NCBI GenBank assembly: GCA_039621445.1
Contig: CP154954.1
Span: forward strand, 4,392,714-4,456,713
DNA from: Euglena gracilis
Taxonomy: Eukaryota
Length of the DNA: 64,000 nucleotides
Reading direction: 5' to 3'
The notes below the pieces were generated by a model that saw only the letters and a program-made list of their open reading frames with translations, searched no databases and had not been told where the DNA came from. Positions 1 to 64,000 of this stretch are shown here, in pieces; positions within the stretch are counted from its first letter, which is position 1, and each line of letters opens with the position of its first letter. Position numbers and translations under genes: made by a program.

Positions 1-6394
<6,394 letters not shown>

Positions 6395-6670: not shown

Positions 6671-7306
6671 CCACAACTAAAAACAAACAAATTGACACAG
6701 TCCAGAGTGGTCGCGGCCAACTTCATGGGGCAGGTTGAAGATCCACCACGGGTGGGGAAGTGTGGAAATTATCACCCGACCGGTCCACTTCCTGGCTTGA
6801 TTGGCATGCGATCGCTGTCGCCCCTGCTCCGGGGCTTGCAGCCCAATGCCATGCAATTCATCCACACCACGCCTTTGATTAAGGCCCCGGGGGGTCCACT
6901 GGCTAAAATTTTGGACGAGCTGGGAAAAAATGGACCAGCTAGAACCCCCCTTCCAAGGGGGGGGTCCGGGGGTCCCTCCGACTGAAGAAAAAAAATTCCC
7001 TCTGGTGCTGTGCGCCGAGGTAGAAGTGAGGTTTTTAATGGGGTTTTGGCAGACTTTGTCCAAAAAATGGCCAAATGTGGGCATTTGGCCAGTTTTGGGG
7101 GGTCCCAGAAATCTTTTCGGCACTTCGCGCCAGCAACTGGAACAAAAACTTTCACTGGCTAGCCCTGCCAGCGGATCCCCCCACCTCCCGGGGGGGTCCA
7201 CTTAAAATCCCTCCTCGAACGTCGTTCGAGGTCGTTCGAGGAGGTTCGAGACCCTCCTCGAATGTCGTTCGAGGTCGTTCGAGGAGGGTCCTCAAACGTT
7301 TTTAAG

Positions 7307-15987: not shown

Positions 15988-18289
15988 TCGGGGACAGTCG
16001 GAGTTTATTTACTGGGTTAGGGTTTGGGTCCCGGCCCAATTGCCGTGGGGGTCTCATTGTTGGGAATTTAGGGAGAGGTTAGGCCGCATTCCGGACCATT
16101 TTTGGGAGAATTTAGGCCAAATTCCAGCAATTCTTTGGGCAAAACGGGTTAAATCTTCCCAACCGGCCACCTAACTTCCGGTCTTCATAATCGGGGGCAG
16201 TTTTCGGCCCGTCAATCCCAGCCTAACCCCATTCCTATAAGTATGCACATATCCTCCCAAATCAGACAAAAAAACGTGCAATTTCGCCACGCTTCCCAGG
16301 CGAAATGGAACGAAAAGTTTGGACCAGATGGGAACTGTCAGGACCCCCCCCCCTGGAACTATGTGTGCCCCCTGGAGGGGTCCATACAATTGCTAGTATT
16401 AGTATATATGTATATGTATACATGTATATATACACACATTATATGTATACTGTATTTATACATATACATATATACTATATATTACTTTGCATGCATTGCA
16501 TGTTGTATGTATACATTACTCTCTATATTATACATAACATCCATGTATTTATTAAAACAATATGTTTAACATACGTGTGAACGCTACTGGTATAATATAC
16601 GTCCCGCAGGAAGGTCCTGTCGTCAAAGGAGGGGAAAAAGCAAATCAGCTCTTTTCCCCCTCCGGGAACGTCAACAAGCAGCGGAATGGGCCCGACGTAC
16701 GGCACCAAGTGAGGGTTAAAACAGGGGACGGGTCAATGGATGGGGCCAAGAGGGGGAGACGGGTGGGGCGGGCAGACAGACACATCACGAAAGAAAAATA
16801 GAGCAAATAAAAGCAAATTGGAGGCTGCAGCCTCGCTTTGGAACAGGGGCCAACACAACAATTAGCTGTAGGGACTGACAGCAACGGTGGGGACTGACTT
16901 GTTGGATTTCATAGGGCAACTAGGTTCATTGATCTTTCGGTATTGTGTCAGAACAATTTGTGAATACACGTTTTCCAATAAGAAGGTAACCGCTTTCAGG
17001 TGGATGTAAAAAGCCTATCTCATATATTTGTTTTCTATTGATTTTCCAACCTAGAAAACATTGCAATGAGCGTCCATCTCATTATTCAGGCGTTCATTTG
17101 CATGACTCAATACTCAAACTCAACGCTCAAAACTAACATTTTTTTTTATTTTTATATCCTTTCTGATTTCCTTTTTGCTGGTTTGCTGTTTGCTGAATGT
17201 TATACCCGTTTTCCTGATTTGCTGTTTGCTGATTGCTATACTGCAGCTGCATCGCCGGTGGAAGGGATGACAATGTGGCATTTCAGACGAGGCTGGCAGA
17301 TGCCAACGGGGGATTCGTCACAGGGGAGCCAACACCGCGGTCCACGGGACGGGGAACAACTCACAATTCCGAAGGCCGAACGTTAATACTGCGTGCTTTG
17401 TCTGGAGCACGCAGCAGTTGATCCACCACCTTTGATCGGGATTGAAATAAAAAAGGAAAGCAAAAATGCACTCGCATGGTTAAGCTGATTCATTGGTGAA
17501 ACAACGAGCAATATATTATTAAAATTGAATATGGTCAAAAAAGGCAAGGAACATTGGATGAATCATGCAATCCCAGGTTTATACTCAATGAATCAAATTA
17601 ATAATTCTCAGGCAAGCAGTGATGAACTACGAAATTATGGACTCCATTCATAATTTGGCCGTGCACAAAAAAAGACCCATAACAATACAAAATTTACATG
17701 TGCCTTCAAAATGAATACTCACATTGAGAGTTTGATTGAAATCAAAGCAAAGTGTGTTGGGAAAATACACTGGGGAAACACAACGCATCTTGCACGTAAT
17801 TCACACAGGACGAAGTCCACCAGCCCCCACTTCCTGCTTTTGGGTGAAACTAACTCACTGGATCCCTTGCCCATAAGACTACGGTATTGACGCACTCCGC
17901 AGATGGCTGCCACCGCCCCCAACTTCAGCCAAGATGGCTAGTTAAAAAAGGAGACATCCTCCCCACCGAAGCACTTGGGGTGGTGGGCATGTGTCAATTG
18001 GTCAGGAAGGGGTGGATTAAATCAAAATTAGCAGGCTATTTGAGGGGTCGGTTGGGCGCCTGGGCCCGATATGCACCCCCCTCAATATATTTGATAGTTT
18101 TGACCGGAATATATATGTTATCAACTCAGCTGCGTGGCCATCATCCCTTTCTGGAACACTACGTACGGGAAGAAGAACCGCATTCCCTTCCGCACTGCGA
18201 GGGGGCAATAGCCGACTGGCAGGGGGCGCCGCCAGCTTCTGCTTCTTCAGAGCTCCAGAGCTTCGGTACGCAAACATGCATACACGCAT

Positions 18290-18695
18290 ACATGCCCACA
18301 CACATACACACACACACATACATACATACATACATACATACATACATACATACATACATACATACATACATACATACATACATACATACATACATACATA
18401 CATACATACATACATACATACATACATACATACATACATACATACATACATACATACATACATACATACATACACACATACACACATACACACATACACA
18501 CATACACACATACATACATACATACATACACACATACACACATACACACATACACACATACATACATACATACATACATACATACATACATACATACATA
18601 CATACATACATACATACAGACATACATACATACATACATACATACATACATACATACATACATACATACATACATACATACATACATACATACAT

Positions 18696-18726
<31 letters not shown>

Positions 18727-18804
18727 TACATACATACATACATACATACATACATGCATACATACATACATACATACATACATACATACATGCATGCATG
18801 CATG

Positions 18805-18836
<32 letters not shown>

Positions 18837-18991
18837 CATACATACATACATACATACATACATACATACATACATACATACATACATACATACATACATA
18901 CATACATACATACATACATACATACATACATACATACATACATACATACATACATACATACATACATACATACATACATACATACATACAT

Positions 18992-19022
<31 letters not shown>

Positions 19023-19025
19023 TGC

Positions 19026-19094
<69 letters not shown>

Positions 19095-19120
19095 TCCATC
19101 CATACATACATACATACATA
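18290..19120. repeat. Compound (CATA)n/(CAGA)n microsatellite
   Basis: Direct inspection; source of the HTYI/MYVC pseudo-ORFs. Confidence 0.98.
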
Positions 19121-19289
19121 CGACGTGTGTGTCTATGTAATGTATTGTATATGACGTGTGTATTGTATGACGTGTGTATGTATGTAGTGTGTTCGGACAC
19201 CATTCACTCATTAAATCGTAGCACATTTCTGATGCTGTTGTGTTGGACTGCAGTACACGCACGCTTCTTCCCAAAAATGATGAGTACAC

Positions 19290-22200
19290 TTGAAAGAAGC
19301 GGTGCCAGCACCGCGGCACAGCCTGAGCAGCTCGCACTTCCGCCGGCATGCGGTCATGCCCAAGCTTTTGCTTAAGGGGGTCCAGTGGCCAACACCACTT
19401 ACTATCCACTAGAACTCCCCAGCCTTACCCCCCCCCCACCCGCCACTGGCCTGGACTGGGTGGTCCGGGGGTCCCTCCCACTGGAAAAAAATTCCTCAAG
19501 GGCTACCCCCCGGAGATGGAAATAAGACTTTTAATGAGCTTTCTTTGCCTCATTTTGTTCCACAGAATCCCAAAAAAAAAATGCCAGAAATGTGCATTAA
19601 TGGTGGGGTTTGAGGTTCCAAAAATTTCTGGTCAGTGGGTCCCGGTTTTCCGGTTGTTAGCGGGACCCTCGCCAGGGGGGGAGGGGGCGTCTCATTTCCA
19701 ACAGTCAAATTGGGACTAGCCCCAATTAATTAATCAATTTGGGACTTGCCAGCATCGCCTCCGGGGGGGACTGTCAACCGTTAAGCAGATGCCTGGTCGT
19801 GCCGCTTCGACCGGCGGCGCTCCGTCTTCTCCTGTGCCGACAGCAAGCACTTCCAGGCACTTGTCATTTTGGTGGTGTTGACAGGATTTGCCGGGATTTG
19901 TCGGGATTTGTCGGGTTTGAACACTGGAGGTGGGGTCCCGGCCACAATATTGGAAGAATTTGTTCTGAGACAAAGATGACTTTTGGCCACTTTTGTGCAC
20001 TTTTGTCAACTTTTGCCACACATTTAGCCATTTTTGCCCACCACTGTCCAACAACATGGCCACCCTTAGCCACTTTTTGGCACTCCTTTTGGCCGTTTTT
20101 GGGCACTTTTGCCCACACTTTGGCCTTTTTTGGCAGCTTTTGGGCCTACCTTCCCAAAACAAATAATACCCCCCCTTGGGGTCCGACTTCGGCCACCGAA
20201 TTAATACCCCCAAAATCTCGGGCCGACGACCCGGATTTTGACCTGAAATTTTGGGTAAAAATGTCTCTCTGACAATCTCTGACAACAAATTACGAAAAAC
20301 ATCGATTTTTCTGGATCACCTGGCCTCCAAAAATGCTACATTTTATGAGAAAGGACAAAAAATGACCCCAAAGGGGGGGCTTTGTATGCTATTTTGGGTC
20401 TTACAGGACTTCGAAAAATTTCGAAAATTTTGGGGTGCTATTACCCCCCCCCAAATAATACCCCCCTTCGGGCCAGGACTTCGGGCAAAAAAATAATTCC
20501 CCGGGGGGGTATTATTTGGGGGGGGGGGTTAGCTGGAGGCACTTGGCCTCCAGGAAGCAGTGCGCCTCGTGCTGCGTGCGGAAGCCGGACGTGGCCACCC
20601 GCACCTGCGCCTGCATGACCTTGCCCAGCAGCCTGCAACACAGAGGAGTGGGCGACCTTGGACAGTTATTCGCAGAAAGACCCACACAAAAAATACATAA
20701 TCTTTCGAAATATTTCTATCGAAATGTCAATGAAATGCACGGTTCTGTGAGCCGTGGGATGAAGCCAGTGATTCACTTGGGGGGGGGGGGACCGGGCCCA
20801 AAGCCACCCACCCACTATTATTGAAAACCCAAGCAACCATAAAACCCGCGCGGGGGTCAACCTACCCACCCACCCATCCAAACAGCACCTCAAACAAGCC
20901 GAAACCCCTGGTGTGGCTTTTGGCTCGGCTCGGCTTCATTGTCCCATAGCGCTCCCCACCCTCCGCGGTGGCAGGAGGGGTGGGGGGTCCAGCGACCCGA
21001 CTCACCCACCCACACTCAAAAACCCACCAAACCCCATAAATAAAATCGATGAATGAGCAAAGTGTCGACGGTGACACGCTGGGTTTTCCGTCCCCCGAAA
21101 TAAACGACCGGCAACACCCATGCGCCCACTTGCCCCGGGCCGACGTCACACACCGGGGGCCCGTCCGGCTCTGCTCCAGCACGCCGAAGTACAGCCGGCC
21201 GCTGGCCCCGGCCCACCACGCCGGGCACACGAAGCGGCAGATGATGAGGTCCACCGCGTCCAGGGGGGTTTGTTGGAACACCCCCACGCACCCAGCCCCG
21301 CAAGGAGAAGTGTGGTGGTGTGGGCAGGACCCCCGACGGCTCCCCTGCTGGGGGTGGGTCCATCAAGGGGGGGGGGGGCTCTGCAGGTTGTCAGGCCGGA
21401 GTCGGCGGGGAAATGAAATACTGTGTAAAAAAAAAACGTGATGTGCATGGTTTGCAAATTTTAACCAGTTTTTTTTTTTGCAAGCGAGCCCCTAAAGGCT
21501 CAATGGTGGCGGTTTTTGAAATGCAAATGTGGCCCCCAATTCCCACAAATAAATTAAACTCCCAGAATTTTGGTTTCAAACCAGCTTAGCTGGGGCAATT
21601 TGATTACCGCAGACATGAAAGCTGTGGATGGATAAAAAAAAAATAGCAGGTGGGTGATGGTTGCTGGGGCCTTCGGGCCTCAGAAACCTCCTGACCGCGT
21701 CACAGAACGCAAAGATGGCATCCAGCACGTCGGTCCCGCAGCGCTCCAGGGGGCTCAGCCGGCCCGTTGCCGGCTCTGAGGGACAGGACGCGGGGAGGCT
21801 GCACGGAGTTGCAGTGCAGTGCCGGCCCCCCTGGAGGGTAAGGGGTTGGCAGTGTGGGTCAGTGGCGCAGACCTGCCCGATGACGGCAGGGCAGTAAGAA
21901 AAGAAAAAAGACAAAAAATACTGTTGGAGCACATTCAATGAAAAATCCACAGGGAAAAAATGGCGCAAAACGGCCTTATTTTGGGTTAAAAAAACGGGTG
22001 GATTTCAGGGATATCCGCACCTTCACCACCATCGGAACGGACGACTGAAAAAAATATTACCTGTTGGATATCAGCCTTTTTCCCCTAAAGACTGCCCTTG
22101 GGCCAAGGGATGGCCAAAGGCTGATCCGTGGGTCGACAGGGTCAAAAATTAAAAAGTCGAAAACACATTTTTCTGACGTTTTGGCACCGGTTTATGATTA

Positions 22201-24193
22201 CGGATAATAATAATAATAATAATAATAATAATTTTGCAGTTGACAGTTTGGGCGTCTGTTGGCCCTTGGCCCTGTGGCCCTGGTTGAACTGCCCCAAAGG
22301 AAATCACATGGAACCACTCGAAGCGTTAAAAAAAAAAAAAAGAGACAAAACAAGGTCAATTGAAGACAACGGTTAACTTGCCCCGCGGTGAACAGCACGA
22401 GAGAACTCGCACCGGCGCACCTTTCAGGGCAACGACCAGGTCACGGTAGGGGAGGCGGGTGTTGATGGGGCCCGTACAAGGCGGCTCCTCCTCGTCCTCC
22501 GCCAGGATGCGGTCCTTCGGCGGCAGGGCGTTGCGAAACGACCTGCCGGGGGGTGCAACGCATACCATTGCTTACCCCCCCGGGGGAGGGGGGTATTCTT
22601 CCAATTTCAAAAAACCAGTCAGCCACTGTTCAAAAACCAGTCACCCAGTTCCTGCCCTCTCCCCCCCCCGGGGGGGATCAGTCACTTTGGTCACTCGGCC
22701 ATAAATGACCAAATACAAAGGATTTTGGTCAATAAATATTCGCCCCAGGTATCCTGGCCGACACACCCCGGGGACGGGGGGGTCCGGAGCCTAAAAGCAG
22801 TCAGTCACTCCGAAAAAACCAGTCAGTCACCCGTTCGGGTCGGATGCATCTTGAGCAACGGAATGGTCCAGCTCACAGGCGGTATTTTTTCGAATTCCTT
22901 TTTAAAAACTGAACTTTTTATTTTTGAAATTTTGAATTTTTTGATAAGAGTTGGGCTTTCTTTGAGGGTGCTGGCAGACTGGGCAGCCGAGCAGTGAGTC
23001 GAGGGGGAGAGCGGGGTCCGGGAACAGGCTGCTGGGTGGCTGCCCCCCCAGAGGGTGGGGTCCCTCCAAATGAGGAGACGCCCTGTCCTGGGGCGTCTCC
23101 TGCTCGTGGACGTAGAGGCTCAGCTTGGTACAGCACACGCACTGCAGGGTGGGGTCGAGGGGAGGAGGGTGGGACCGTCCTGTGGCCAGGTTGCATTAGG
23201 GAGGGACGGCGGAAAAACAGCCGAAAGCCGCACTGCGACATTTCAGGCCATGTACAAATAAAAACACACTACATTACCACACCTTTAGGCATTTATACCT
23301 TTATTTACACTTACATACTACATTTACATGCTGCATTTCATGTCCAAATAAAAGCACACCACATTTACATACATTTTTTCCATTTATACGTTGGTTTACA
23401 TTTAAATACCACATTTACATGCCAAATTTCATGCCTAAATAAAACATACTACACTTACAAACATTTATCCATTTATACATAGGTTTACATTTACGTACCA
23501 CATTTACGCGCTACATTTCATGGCAAAATAAAAACATGCTGCAGGAGCGGGCCGACCTGAAGAGGATTCAGTGTTGCTGGGAAGATACAACAAAAGTTGC
23601 GGAGGGTACCCAAAGCATACACACGCCTTTCCCCTCGGGCCACACCTGCACAATCAGAAAATTGTTGATAAAAAACCCATGCAGGTGCGCAAATGTATAG
23701 CCCCTAACGGGGCCCTTGGTTTGATTACAAAATGCAGGGCTCTCCCATTTCTTGGACAGCACACACATGTTTCAAAAAGCAAAAGGCGTCGAAGCAAAGT
23801 GCTCCAAAAATTTGAAATATGCTTCAAGATGGTCAAAGATGAGAAAGATGAGAAAGCTGAGAAACGTTCAGGCAAAGGAAAATGGTGACCTTTAGGTCGA
23901 TGAATTTTCTGACAAAATAGAAAATTCAAAAAAAAATGAACATGAAAAATGTATAACCGCCCCATGCGGATCTTGAAATTCTGCCCATATTTGGCATTGG
24001 GGAGGAATGGCATTGTGCAATGTGGAATATATGCAACGTGGTTGATTGGTCTGCCACGACACAAGATTGTCGGCCACGGCACGGGTGGAGGTGTTGGCAC
24101 GGCGGGTGGTGTGGGTGGTGCCGCGGGGACGATGTCTTCTGCCGCTCTTTCTTCCGGCACCACTTCCGCTGCCGCGACTGTTTCGAGAACCCA
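19290..24193 (-). CDS. Multi-exon F-box protein (core region; true ends uncertain)
   Basis: Inferred exons: 24193-~24070, 22542-22421, 21775-21697, 21255-21154, 20632-~20540, ~19848-19799 and 19355-~19290. The joined peptide LSPLERCGTDVLDAIFAFCDAVDLIICRFVCPAWW fits the F-box pattern. Possible further exons at ~26.1-25.95k, 25.3k, 23.0-23.1k, 15.3k and 14.5k. Confidence 0.72.
19356..19798 (-). other. Nonconventional intron consisting of a family-A MITE (19361-19795) plus one TSD copy
   Basis: CAC|GAC-CAGGCATCTGCTTAA ... TTAAGCAAAAGCTTG-GGCAT|GAC; flanks GGCACGAC / GGCATGAC (7/8). Confidence 0.75.
19853..20536 (-). other. Nonconventional intron core (CCAG..CTGG) flanked by an 8-bp near-duplication
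   Basis: Flanks AAGTGCCT (20544-20537) / AAGTGCTT (19852-19845); removing the core and one copy gives the in-frame peptide EAKCLLSAQEK. Confidence 0.65.
21256..21696 (-). other. Nonconventional intron splitting the F-box motif, with perfect 8-bp flanking duplication
   Basis: GACGC|GGT-CAGG ... CCTG-GACGC|GGT; GACGCGGT at 21701-21694 and 21260-21253; no AG at the 3' end. Confidence 0.85.
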
Positions 24194-27343: not shown

Positions 27344-33241
<5,898 letters not shown>

Positions 33242-34490: not shown

Positions 34491-35276
34491 TATGCGGTGC
34501 GCGTTGGATTATGTTTGTCGGAGTGGATCAGGTCATTGCTTGAGGACTCGGGGGGGGGGGGAGTTGGTCCACTGGCTGCCCATTTTGCTTGACACTGGAA
34601 AAAAATGGACTTGCTAGACCCATTGGGCGGTACACGGGTCCGCCCAACTCAAATTTCTTTTCTCCGGCATTGCGCGCCAAGGTGGAAATGAGTTTTAATA
34701 CTTTTTCCGGCTGATTTTGTTCCAAAAAAAGCCAAAAATGGCCAAAAATGGGCACTTTGGCCATTTTTGGCGGTCCAAAAAATTTTTGGTGCTTTGTGAC
34801 GGTCACTTTTCTAACTTGCTGCCCCTTAAAGGACCCACGGCGGGCCCACTGGGATTAGGATTTCCACTGGCCAAATTTGGACCAGCTGCAGTCCAGCCCC
34901 CTCCCAGTACCCCTTAAGCTGCGGGAGGCAAAGCTGTGGGGGGGGGGTAGGTTGGTTGGTGGGTGGGTGGGTGTGGGTGTGGGGGGGGGGGGGGGTGTGG
35001 TGTGGGGGGGTGGGTGTGTGTGTGGGTGGGTGGGTGGGTGGGTGGGGGTGGTGGGGGTGGGGGTGGGGGGTGGGTGTCAGCATGTGACAGTTTGAGAGGT
35101 GGGATTGCAGGTGAACGCAACAAACAGGTTTGCATCTGTGCAAAAGGTGTCAAGAAATGCAAACACAGTAACAAAAAAGAACAGATTGCCACAGAGGAGG
35201 CGGTCCGTAACTGGCGCCACAGCCAGCAAGCCAACAATATGGCTACAGGAGGGTGGGGGCGCAAGGTTCACAGGCG

Positions 35277-41656: not shown

Positions 41657-42035
41657 CAGGGTTCGATATAAGGACAGGTGGGGGGGTGGTCCGGACCCCC
41701 CCCCCTGCGGGCCAGGAGGGGGGGGTGGAGGGACACCCCCCCTACCTAAACAGTGGCGGTCTGGGTGACCGAATTTCGCGCCGGGCCGAAAATTTTTGAC
41801 CCCCCAAAAAGACCAAAAGTGCCATTTTGGGCACTTTTTGGGCAAAAATGTGCCAAAAATGCAAAAAAAAAATTGACCCTTTTTGGGGGGGTCCCGGATA
41901 CCCCCCAGGGTCGGTCCGGACCCCCCTGGCAGGTGGGGGGGGGGTGGTCCGGACCCCCCTTGCAGGTGGGGGGGGGGGGGGGGGGGGGGGCCCCCCCCAC
42001 CTAAACCATGTACGCCCTCCTTATATCAAACCCTG
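41657..42035. mobile_element. CAG..CTG MITE inserted in a poly-G tract
   Basis: TIR CAGGGTT(C/T)GATATAAGG (16/17); both flanks are G runs of 8 or more. Confidence 0.8.
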
Positions 42036-50893: not shown

Positions 50894-62181
<11,288 letters not shown>

Positions 62182-64000
62182 GTTGATGCACTGGCCAACA
62201 CCGAAAACCAGGGGATTCTTTTTAAGACCGGGGGGGAGGGGTGGGGTACACCCCACCCACCCACCCCCCGGTCCCCCCCCCTGGGATGGGGGTCCCGGGG
62301 GACCACAAAAAAATGCCAAAAATCGCGAAAAGTGCTAAAAATAGCACTTTTTCGGACGACTTCTTGACTTTTGGAATCCGTGTCTTTGGAGCATTTGGGG
62401 CCCAACACCATGCATATTCGAAAGAACTCTCGAGGTGTAATTGATTGATTCTCATTTCAAAAAAAAAAACTCTCAAAAAAACAGGGGCAGATTCTCCAGC
62501 ACAAAAGGAGGCGACAATCACCTGGGACACAGAGAAAAAAAAAGAATGAATGAGAGCACATCCTATAGCTATCCCCCTCAGGGCGTAGCCCGCAAAGCCC
62601 CCCTTCCGGGACCAAACTCCAAACCTATGCTGATTGGACTGCAAAACCTGAACCCTAAACTGAACTGAACTGAGCTGAACCCAAGCCCAAAACAAAAAGG
62701 CATTTCCAGCCAGTCAGCCGCTGCCAGATGTGTTGCTGGCGCTGGAGATCAATCTTCCTCTGAAACGATTTGCTGACGCAAACCCGAAAACCTAAACCCA
62801 AGCCCAGAGTGGTGTCCTGAGCCCGAACCCATGAACGAAAACCCGACACTGCATTTCCAAATCAACGCCATCCGCGCCCTTGGTACCACAAATGTCCAAC
62901 TCCAGTCGGTTACGTCAAACAACCACAACCCGAACATGCGACGTTCACTCGGAGCCCAGGGCGCAATGGTTTCCGACTCCGCGCAGACACCTCGGCACTG
63001 CTTTGCCAGCCGGAGCGGGTGTCAATGAGCCTAAATGGATGCTCAAATACTCGGTGGTGAAATGTGACAGTGTCAGGCACATTAAGGGAAATCCTGGGGG
63101 GAAGTCGGATCCCCCAACCAGGCTTGTGCTTACCGACAGGGGGGGTAGGTGCTATATGGTGCCTGCCCCTAGCTTGCACACCCTCCCGGGGGGGGGGGTC
63201 CCCGGAGACCCAGAAAATTTTCCTTGAGAATGGCCTTTTCCGGGCCCCCGGGGCCTTTGGCACCGGGGTCGGAGGGGGTGACTGCTATGGGCAGGCACCC
63301 CCAGGAGGGGGGCGCCTGCTACGGGCAGGCACCCCCAACTACCCCCCAGGGGGGGGGGGGGTCGGACGGGGTGCTATAGGGTGTCTGCCCCTAGCAGCCC
63401 CCCTCCGTGGGGTAGCCACCCGACTAAGCACAAGCCTGCCCCCAACACAGAGTAGGGGGAGATCCCTTTCTCAACACCGACGAGGGCACACAAAACAGTT
63501 CGGTTCAGAAGGCGGCCGAGGGTAAAAATGCCTGCACAAATTGGACGAAATGTCCATGAAAAGTATTTTGACACAACCAGAAAATTTCAAAAAAATGTAA
63601 CCACTCACCAGGTAACTGTCCTCATAAATACAGTGCTGAGAGAGAGCAGTTCCCAAATGGATCCGAACCATGGAGAAAAATATGTTGTTTATGGACTCCG
63701 ATACAAAAAAAACCGAAAAAAAATATTTTTTATGACACCAGACACTGATTTTCAACCTGGGGAATGCATTTTCTTAGCAAAAAGTGCGATTTTTTTTTGA
63801 AAAATTGGTGTCAGGAGTCAGCATGCAAGGGGGATCGGATCCGGTGGGATCAAAGGTTCTCCTGGCCGACAGGTTATTGAAAAGAACCCCCAGAAGGAGG
63901 GCCTTTCAGGCGACGGGCATGACCCGTCACATGGGTCGCTGACAGCTTCACGAACCACACACCCTCAACACAAGGACACGGCCACCATCACCCGCCCCGG

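Follow-up and report, generated by a model that had tools for sequence, protein, structure and literature searches.

Within a 64,000-nucleotide (nt) stretch of the Euglena gracilis genome (GenBank assembly GCA_039621445.1, contig CP154954.1, forward-strand positions 4,392,714 to 4,456,713; called the window here and numbered from its first letter), a gene on the minus strand carries a 65-nt exon that is split in the DNA by a MITE (miniature inverted-repeat transposable element) at 19361-19795, and the messenger RNA (mRNA) lacks this element. The element has terminal inverted repeats (TIRs), is flanked by a target site duplication (TSD), and belongs to a family, designated family A, of which another copy lies at 1973-2362. 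The orientation of the gene was read from two RNA joints, 20631 to 21153 (15, 22 and 2 reads) and 21775 to 22421 (16, 14 and 3 reads); both have CT..AC borders on the plus strand, and the gene therefore lies on the minus strand with GT-AG introns at these places. The RNA evidence comes from raw reads of three runs, X21 and X22 from one study and X24 from another, with about 5-6 in every 100 reads of each run read; these three runs and the contigs of one DNA run (X1) were compared with 19125-23240 only. The parts of the split exon and the second copy of the element are given below, where N3/N5 stands for the 3-nt and 5-nt spacers of the published code for Euglena nonconventional introns, taken up further on.

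19804-19835, minus strand: 32-nt piece of the interrupted exon lying upstream of the element (leftmost representation), defined by RNA depth, frame and a loose end at 20546
19796-19803, minus strand: upstream TSD copy, reading GTCGTGCC on the plus strand; its last 3 nt (19798-19796) would be the 5' spacer under N3/N5
19361-19795, minus strand: family-A MITE copy forming the intron body, with TIRs at 19361-19377 and 19779-19795; the gene strand starts CAGGCATC and ends AAGCTTG
19353-19360, minus strand: downstream TSD copy, reading GTCATGCC on the plus strand; its first 5 nt (19360-19356) would be the 3' spacer under N3/N5
19356-19798, minus strand: intron predicted by the N3/N5 rule, 443 nt, with the cut placed within the TSD; the leftmost equivalent from the reads is 19361-19803
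19328-19360, minus strand: 33-nt piece of the interrupted exon lying downstream of the element, joined on to the exon that ends at 18212
1973-2362, plus strand: young family-A copy whose 17-nt TIR and 8-base-pair (bp) TSD are both perfect, its flanks without a coding signature

The two elements resemble each other at their ends and in their interiors, as the original prediction had claimed from the letters. On direct reading, 1973-2362 (390 nt) carries the perfect TIR, CAGGCATTTGCTTAAGG, and the perfect TSD, TCTTGGGT at 1965-1972 and 2363-2370, that had been ascribed to it; the TSD is exactly 8 bp, and the neighbouring base on each side does not prolong the repeat. The element at 19361-19795 (435 nt) starts CAAGCTTTTGCTTAAGG and ends as the reverse complement of CAGGCATCTGCTTAACG, and the two 8-mers that flank it match at 7 of 8 positions. 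Each of its TIRs differs from that of the 1973 copy by two mismatches, and its arms match one another at 12 of 16 positions. By blastn the interiors of the two elements are homologous over 121 nt (76% identity, E 6e-11), and a MAFFT alignment of five copies (1973, 6868, 19361, 29543 and 34530) has the TIRs in common together with internal blocks that include the motifs GGTCCGGGGGTCCC, CTGGAAAAAAA and TTTTAATG. Copies or fragments of the family were found in the window at 1973, 6868, 19361, 29543, about 32861, and 34530. The TIR pattern, with up to three mismatches allowed, occurs seven times in the window where 0.27 occurrences are expected, and none of 100 shuffles gets to seven. In the DNA run the depth on the family-A core at the 19361 locus is 1447, as against about 57 on its flanks, and therefore further family-A copies have exact words in common with this one. 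We conclude that 19361-19795 is a member of family A, among the more diverged ones. One could suppose instead that the resemblance to 1973-2362 is convergent and that an old intron, unrelated to the family, lies here, and CAGG termini are indeed common to unrelated elements in the window. This seems barely credible given a similarity that spans 17 nt of both TIRs as well as internal blocks, lengths that are alike (435 versus 390 nt), and a 7/8 match of an 8-bp TSD.

The removal of the element from the RNA was visible both as a gap in depth and as reads that cross it. RNA depth was 0 across 19401-19676 in all three runs, and above 0 in all three for the bins that hold the flanking exon pieces, 19328-19360 and 19796-19835. 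Five X21 reads ending at 19360 run on into the letters of 19804-19819, and in four X22 reads starting at 19795 the letters of 19328-19351 (with one mismatch) come before that point, with those of the next exon before them. The mRNA is thus without 443 nt, which is the 435-nt element plus one 8-nt TSD copy. In the DNA run, a contig of 807 nt (depth 57.6, with unique neighbours at 50-57) covers 19125-19911 with 0 differences, and therefore the element is present in that DNA. This 443-nt skip supports the original proposal that the whole intron is a copy of the MITE, linking a mobile family to an intron. Three outcomes had been named in advance as contrary to that proposal, and none was seen: the mRNA does not retain the element, depth being 0 in 19401-19676 in three of three runs; it was not seen to end at a TAA inside the element; and its boundaries are not unrelated to the TIRs, as the skipped 443 nt equal the element plus one TSD.

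A gap of this kind could also be made during reverse transcription, by template switching between the 8-nt direct repeats across the TIR hairpin. A hairpin between direct repeats is the classic setting for such an artefact, and the borders here are non-canonical. From the exon depth, however, about nine reads per run would be expected inside the 435 nt, and none was seen in three runs from two studies. The skip also restores an open frame rich in GC at third codon positions (GC3), and the same pattern is found at introns where the flanks have ceased to be repeats (5/8 and 1/8). We regard template switching as exceedingly improbable.

The exon that the element interrupts is a coding one. Its upstream half connects to the preceding exon through the loose end at 20546 with letters ending at 19835 (11 X21 and 10 X22 reads), and its downstream half to the following exon through a loose end at 19328, where 18, 13 and 6 reads (X21, X22 and X24) continue into the letters of 18183-18212. 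Across the seven internal exons defined by RNA (515 nt), one frame has 0 stops and the other two have three stops each. An open frame alone is weak evidence, being present in 159 of 2000 shuffles; the GC3 periodicity is strong, with a GC content of 0.70, 0.49 and 0.90 at the three codon positions of that frame. The claim that the element interrupts a coding exon with a 7/8 TSD is thus borne out by the open frame, the GC3 of 0.90 and the match between the flanks. Were the element retained, the frame would shift, 443 not being a multiple of three, and a TAA would follow after four codons of read-through. Pfam returned 0 families for two exon translations of the gene, searched as single-exon pieces. 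The F-box-like look of one exon peptide, DAVDLIICRFVCPAWW, together with its upstream neighbour, is our own reading, and Pfam is without a match for it.

We next consider the borders of the intron. GY...AG borders are absent at all nine TSD offsets from 0 to 8 by inspection, offsets 0-4 having also been checked by script. Roughly 70% of Euglena introns are reported to be nonconventional. Their code, determined by knock-in mutagenesis, is N3-CDG...CH'G-N5-6 with a purine (R) directly after the cut (PMC12501133). With spacer lengths assumed, the ends of the 19361 intron appear to fit this code in the form N3-CAG...(C/T)TG-N5 followed by R. On the gene strand the 5' end, GAC+CAG, fits; the 3' end is TTG+GGCAT, in which the first letter is T and not C; and the next exon would begin with G (19355), a purine, if the cut follows N3/N5. 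In both the minimum free energy (MFE) and the centroid RNA fold the TIRs pair with one another, CCAGGC with GCUUGG and UGCUUAA with UUAAGCA, and in both CAG pairs with UUG via a G-U pair.

It is conceivable that the ordinary U2 spliceosome acts at such non-canonical sites and that the TIR hairpin merely helps. The machinery of nonconventional introns is not known, a diplonemid study proposes that an adaptable spliceosome might act (PMC12621601), and conventional GT-AG introns are spliced in this same gene. We nevertheless think this unlikely: no TSD offset pairs a 5' GY with a 3' AG, published mutagenesis makes removal depend on the CAG/CTG motif and on spacers fixed at 3 and 5 nt (PMC12501133), and reviews cite circular and not lariat products.

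Taken together, it is very probable that 19361-19795 is a MITE in a coding exon that is removed from the pre-mRNA by the nonconventional intron pathway described for Euglena. In such a scheme a non-autonomous DNA transposon with 17-nt TIRs and an 8-bp TSD would have inserted into the 65-nt exon of the minus-strand gene. The TIRs would pair and bring the ends of the element together, one cut in the RNA would fall 3 nt upstream of the 5' CAG and the other 5 nt downstream from the 3' (C/T)TG, and the flanking exons would be joined. Both cuts would then fall after position 5 of each TSD copy, and one full 8-mer would remain. Because 3 + 5 = 8, the length of the TSD, the element and one TSD copy would be removed and the pre-insertion sequence and frame restored in the mRNA; because this restoration would be exact, insertion into a 65-nt exon could be tolerated.

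Several observations weigh against this account. The joint from 19360 to 19804 is absent among the 15 of 30 joints listed, and the case for it is made by nine loose-end reads and by depth. The polymorphic TSD base that would mark the cut, A at 19356 and G at 19799 on the plus strand, is only 4-5 nt away from where the read alignments end, too close for the cut to be readable, and the loose ends at 19360 (X21) and 19795 (X22), taken literally, indicate different bases. In place of the C that the published code requires in its 3' motif, this intron has T (TTG); for the intron tested, splicing was lost when single letters of CTG were substituted (PMC12501133). As a whole, the 19361 intron folds no more stably than shuffles (z -1.39), and the two whole-intron z-scores obtained, this one and -0.54, are both unremarkable. 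Just one intronic family-A copy was seen in the 4.1 kb compared with RNA. Across the three RNA runs, within the same 4.1 kb, there was no pre-mRNA read with the element in the RNA strain. The RNA also holds variants absent from X1: at 21768, C replaces T in 4/16, 7/15 and 2/4 reads, and at 19810, C replaces A in 3/13 reads of X21 only. The RNA and the DNA are therefore from non-identical genomes. A second allele or a paralogue could account for these variants, as could a difference between strains or editing.

The variants absent from X1 and the lack of an unspliced read with the element also favor a reading in which no RNA processing takes place and the source of the RNA runs is a strain, allele or paralogue without the insertion. 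The mRNA and an empty site are identical by construction, and at 19339 one consensus of loose ends departs from the window (agreement 0.89, 4 reads). However, the window letter T at 21768 is present in 12/16, 8/15 and 2/4 reads, indicating expression of the window-type copy, and still not one read goes into the element. Such a coincidence would have to recur independently at 21261-21693 and at the other TSD-flanked introns. The X1 assembly passes through the insertion at single-copy depth, with no empty-site contig among the contigs listed, and introns of like build are removed from RNA in Euglena knock-ins (PMC12501133). An empty site is, in our estimation, very unlikely, and we continue with RNA-level removal of the MITE as the preferred explanation.

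The 19361 intron is one of six non-GT-AG introns in this gene. Once slid to positions that give the same mRNA, four of the five others fit N3-CA(G/A)...(C/T)TG-N5/6 with a G next, so that five of the six fit when the 19361 intron (placed by hand at slide 5) is included. The flanking 8-mers of these five match at 8/8, 7/8, 6/8, 5/8 and 1/8 positions, where random flank 8-mers match at about 2/8. The bodies of two of them are as follows.

21261-21693, minus strand: second MITE-like nonconventional intron body, 433 nt, CAGG...CCTG, with a perfect 8-bp repeat at 21253-21260 and 21694-21701
19844-20545, minus strand: third nonconventional intron body, 702 nt, CAAG...CTTG, N3/N5 after a 3-nt slide, flanks 6/8

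At 21261-21701 the RNA skips 441 nt (433 + 8), with a loose end at 21260 in 6 + 5 reads that carry letters at 21702, and RNA depth is 0 in 21333-21608, inside the 433-nt element; the MFE fold of 21261-21701 leaves the very ends unpaired. The intron at 19836-20545 has its joint, 19835 to 20546, established by loose ends, and its CAA...TTG ends amount to a pair-preserving double change. The flanking 8-mers are 5/8 at the intron 22518-23087 and 1/8 at 18213-19327 (1115 nt), which has N3/N6 spacers and pairs at 12 of 16 terminal positions. The intron at 23173-24088 has a 6-nt direct repeat and ends that pair, but is outside the pattern.

Some of these introns hold other repeats. That at 18213-19327 is mostly an (ACAT)x212 microsatellite (18274-19121), yet it is removed (18, 13 and 6 junction reads). 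At 19815-20642 and 22575-22850 the summed contig depth in X1 rises to 168,411 and 135,511, compared with about 55 for unique sequence, and therefore other repeat families nest in or form these two introns. The terminal pairs also differ: CAA/TTG in 19844-20545, CAG/TTG in 19361-19795, and CAG/CTG in young copies. Both the CAA/TTG and the CAG/TTG intron depart from the published CDG/CH'G code, and both are spliced. This series of terminal motifs looks like a pair-preserving path via a G-U intermediate.

A broader proposal is that euglenid nonconventional splicing is RNA-level excision matched to transposons with 8-bp TSDs, and that most nonconventional introns are decayed MITE insertions; we put the chances of this at about even. 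Starting from the TIR stem, the system would measure outward by 3 nt on one side and 5 nt on the other, which is the same offset in both TSDs. Because the CAG...CTG ends are symmetrical, a new insertion would instantly be an exact intron whichever way round it lay. Its ends would then decay from CAG/CTG to CAG/TTG to CAA/TTG by pair-preserving steps, and the last two of these states are both present in this gene.

Elements of similar build are not confined to this gene. A scan for CAR...YTG ends, TIRs matching at no fewer than 9/16 positions, and 8-nt flanking repeats matching at no fewer than 7/8 returned 19 structures in the window versus 0-5 (mean about 2) per shuffle in 20 shuffles. On direct reading, perfect direct repeats of exactly 8 nt flank the elements at 1973, 21261 and 63119, the last of which is described as follows.

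63119-63438, no strand assigned: 320-nt element with the family-A-like TIR CAGGCTTGTGCTTA (arms 14/14) and the perfect 8-bp TSD CCCCCAAC, its flanks non-coding-like

The interior of 63119-63438 gives no alignment with family A at E 1e-3. The flanks of the copies at 1973 and 63119 have GC3 values of 0.52-0.67 and no coding signal (0.52-0.64 at 1973 alone), and from these flanks we infer that 1973-2362 is an ordinary, non-intronic insertion. Over a short range, GC3 is 0.8-0.95 in the flanks of the three intronic elements that RNA confirms.

Further observations concern other parts of the window. A 501-nt CAG...CTG element at 58276-58776, with a perfect 8-nt direct repeat (CCCGCCCA) and a flank GC3 of 0.93-0.95 on the minus strand, is a candidate nonconventional intron of another gene. 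The 379-nt element at 41657-42035 has a TIR of 15/16 (CAGGGTTCGATATAAG), and because it lies within G-runs its 8/8 'TSD' is uninformative. An AT-rich block at 54081-55953 (GC 0.25), made of (TGTATA)x227 and AT/AGAGAT repeats, dominated the inverted-repeat search. In the family-A copy at 6868 the right TIR has apparently been replaced by a palindromic insert of about 90 nt (TCCTCGAACGTCGTTCGAGG repeats) at 7207-7296. Family-A-like left ends at 32861-32975 (minus strand) and 34515-34625 (plus strand), along with some 10 nt of flanking sequence (gtcggagtgg), form an inverted pair 1.5 kb apart, which suggests an inverted duplication instead of two insertions. On the minus strand at 32654-32857, an open frame that resembles an exon runs for 68 codons up to a GT, with a family-A fragment just upstream; in an Atlas feature search this frame gave PH-domain clusters at 0.90-0.91, which we treat as a lead only. 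Outside the window, a TIR scan of metagenomes gave 117 stretches, with a single TIR match in each among the 80 of 117 listed, and blastn of both elements against the 117 loci gave one 31-nt match (E 2.6e-4) and nothing more. On these grounds the stretches were judged chance matches and dropped as relatives of the family.

As to the superfamily, the 8-bp TSD and the CAG terminus of family A suggest a hAT-like origin. The terminus CAGGC fits four of five letters of the hAT consensus, of the YARNG type, and the 8-bp TSD fits as well. Pfam gave 0 families in ten of the window's longest open reading frames, with no transposase partner among them, and an Rfam search of the window gave 0 matches. In common with hAT MITEs and maize Ds, the 19361 element has an 8-bp TSD, TIRs that start with CAG, a small non-coding body, and an exonic insertion that is removed from RNA. 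Giroux et al. are said to have reported in 1994 that maize Ds is spliced as a de novo intron. The removal of Ds is reported to be imprecise and by way of cryptic spliceosomal sites, whereas the 19361 element is removed exactly.

The closest likeness is to the euglenid nonconventional introns themselves (PMC12501133, PMC3935182, PMC4770533, PMC6221363, PMC11170887), with which the 19361 intron has in common its non-GT-AG borders and paired ends. It would also have their CAG at +4 to +6, 3- and 5-nt spacers and downstream purine (G), all if the cut follows the rule, and like them it sits in one gene with GT-AG introns and has direct repeats at its junctions. It departs from the CTG of the published code in its 3' TTG, which forms a G-U pair. 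The published euglenid introns are called 'MITE-like' as a hypothesis in these papers; unlike them, the 19361 intron is assigned to a family with a perfect TIR/TSD copy outside exons.

Resemblances extend to introners. As in Micromonas, Aureococcus and Polarella, according to a review (PMC11282704), a family of DNA transposons with TIRs and TSDs has exonic insertions that are removed, and the TSD makes the removal exact. Introners bring GT/AG sites with them or recruit existing ones and rely on the spliceosome (PMC11282704), whereas the 19361 intron is without a GY-AG pair. Unlike introners, it appears to be recognized via the TIR stem with fixed spacers. The introner elements of Amoebophrya (PMC7789003) also have non-canonical borders, a hairpin formed by inverted repeats of 8-20 nt, direct repeats across the junctions, and repeated families. 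Their direct repeats are 3-5 nt and the splice position varies relative to the hairpin, whereas here the repeats are 8 nt and the CAG/(C/T)TG frame is fixed. Dinoflagellate introners, our first guess for this locus, were dropped in view of the 8-nt repeats and of the pattern of CAG with N3-N5 spacing.

How the nonconventional introns of euglenids arose has been a question since the 1990s. A MITE origin was proposed in 2013, in a paper noting that no euglenid transposon was known at the time (PMC3935182). An 8-nt direct repeat at one recently gained gapC intron of E. agilis was ascribed to break repair (PMC4770533), and TSD-like repeats are mentioned in the review literature (PMC11282704). A genome-scale study of 2025 still described the origins of these introns as ones that 'remain unclear' (PMC12501133). 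In the literature searched, with the supplements of PMC12501133 and PMC4770533 and subscription journals outside the search, we found no report of a family with both intronic and non-intronic copies. Nor did we find the relation between 3 + 5 and the TSD length stated there, the supplements (a slide-distance figure and Table S3) and subscription journals again lying outside the search.

The 19361 case supplies good, family-level evidence for the long-standing hypothesis of a MITE origin, and it does so in three parts: an intron that belongs to a TIR/TSD family, a perfect non-coding copy of that family, and RNA reads with exact removal. It is a concrete example of a nonconventional intron of the Euglena type arising from mobile DNA, and 3 + 5 = 8 would give a simple reason for the experimentally determined spacers of 3 nt and 5 nt. 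With an assembly and RNA sequencing (RNA-seq) at hand, the hypothesis becomes a genome-wide count that is feasible. The case further suggests that removal tolerant of insertion may have let these genomes fill with introns.

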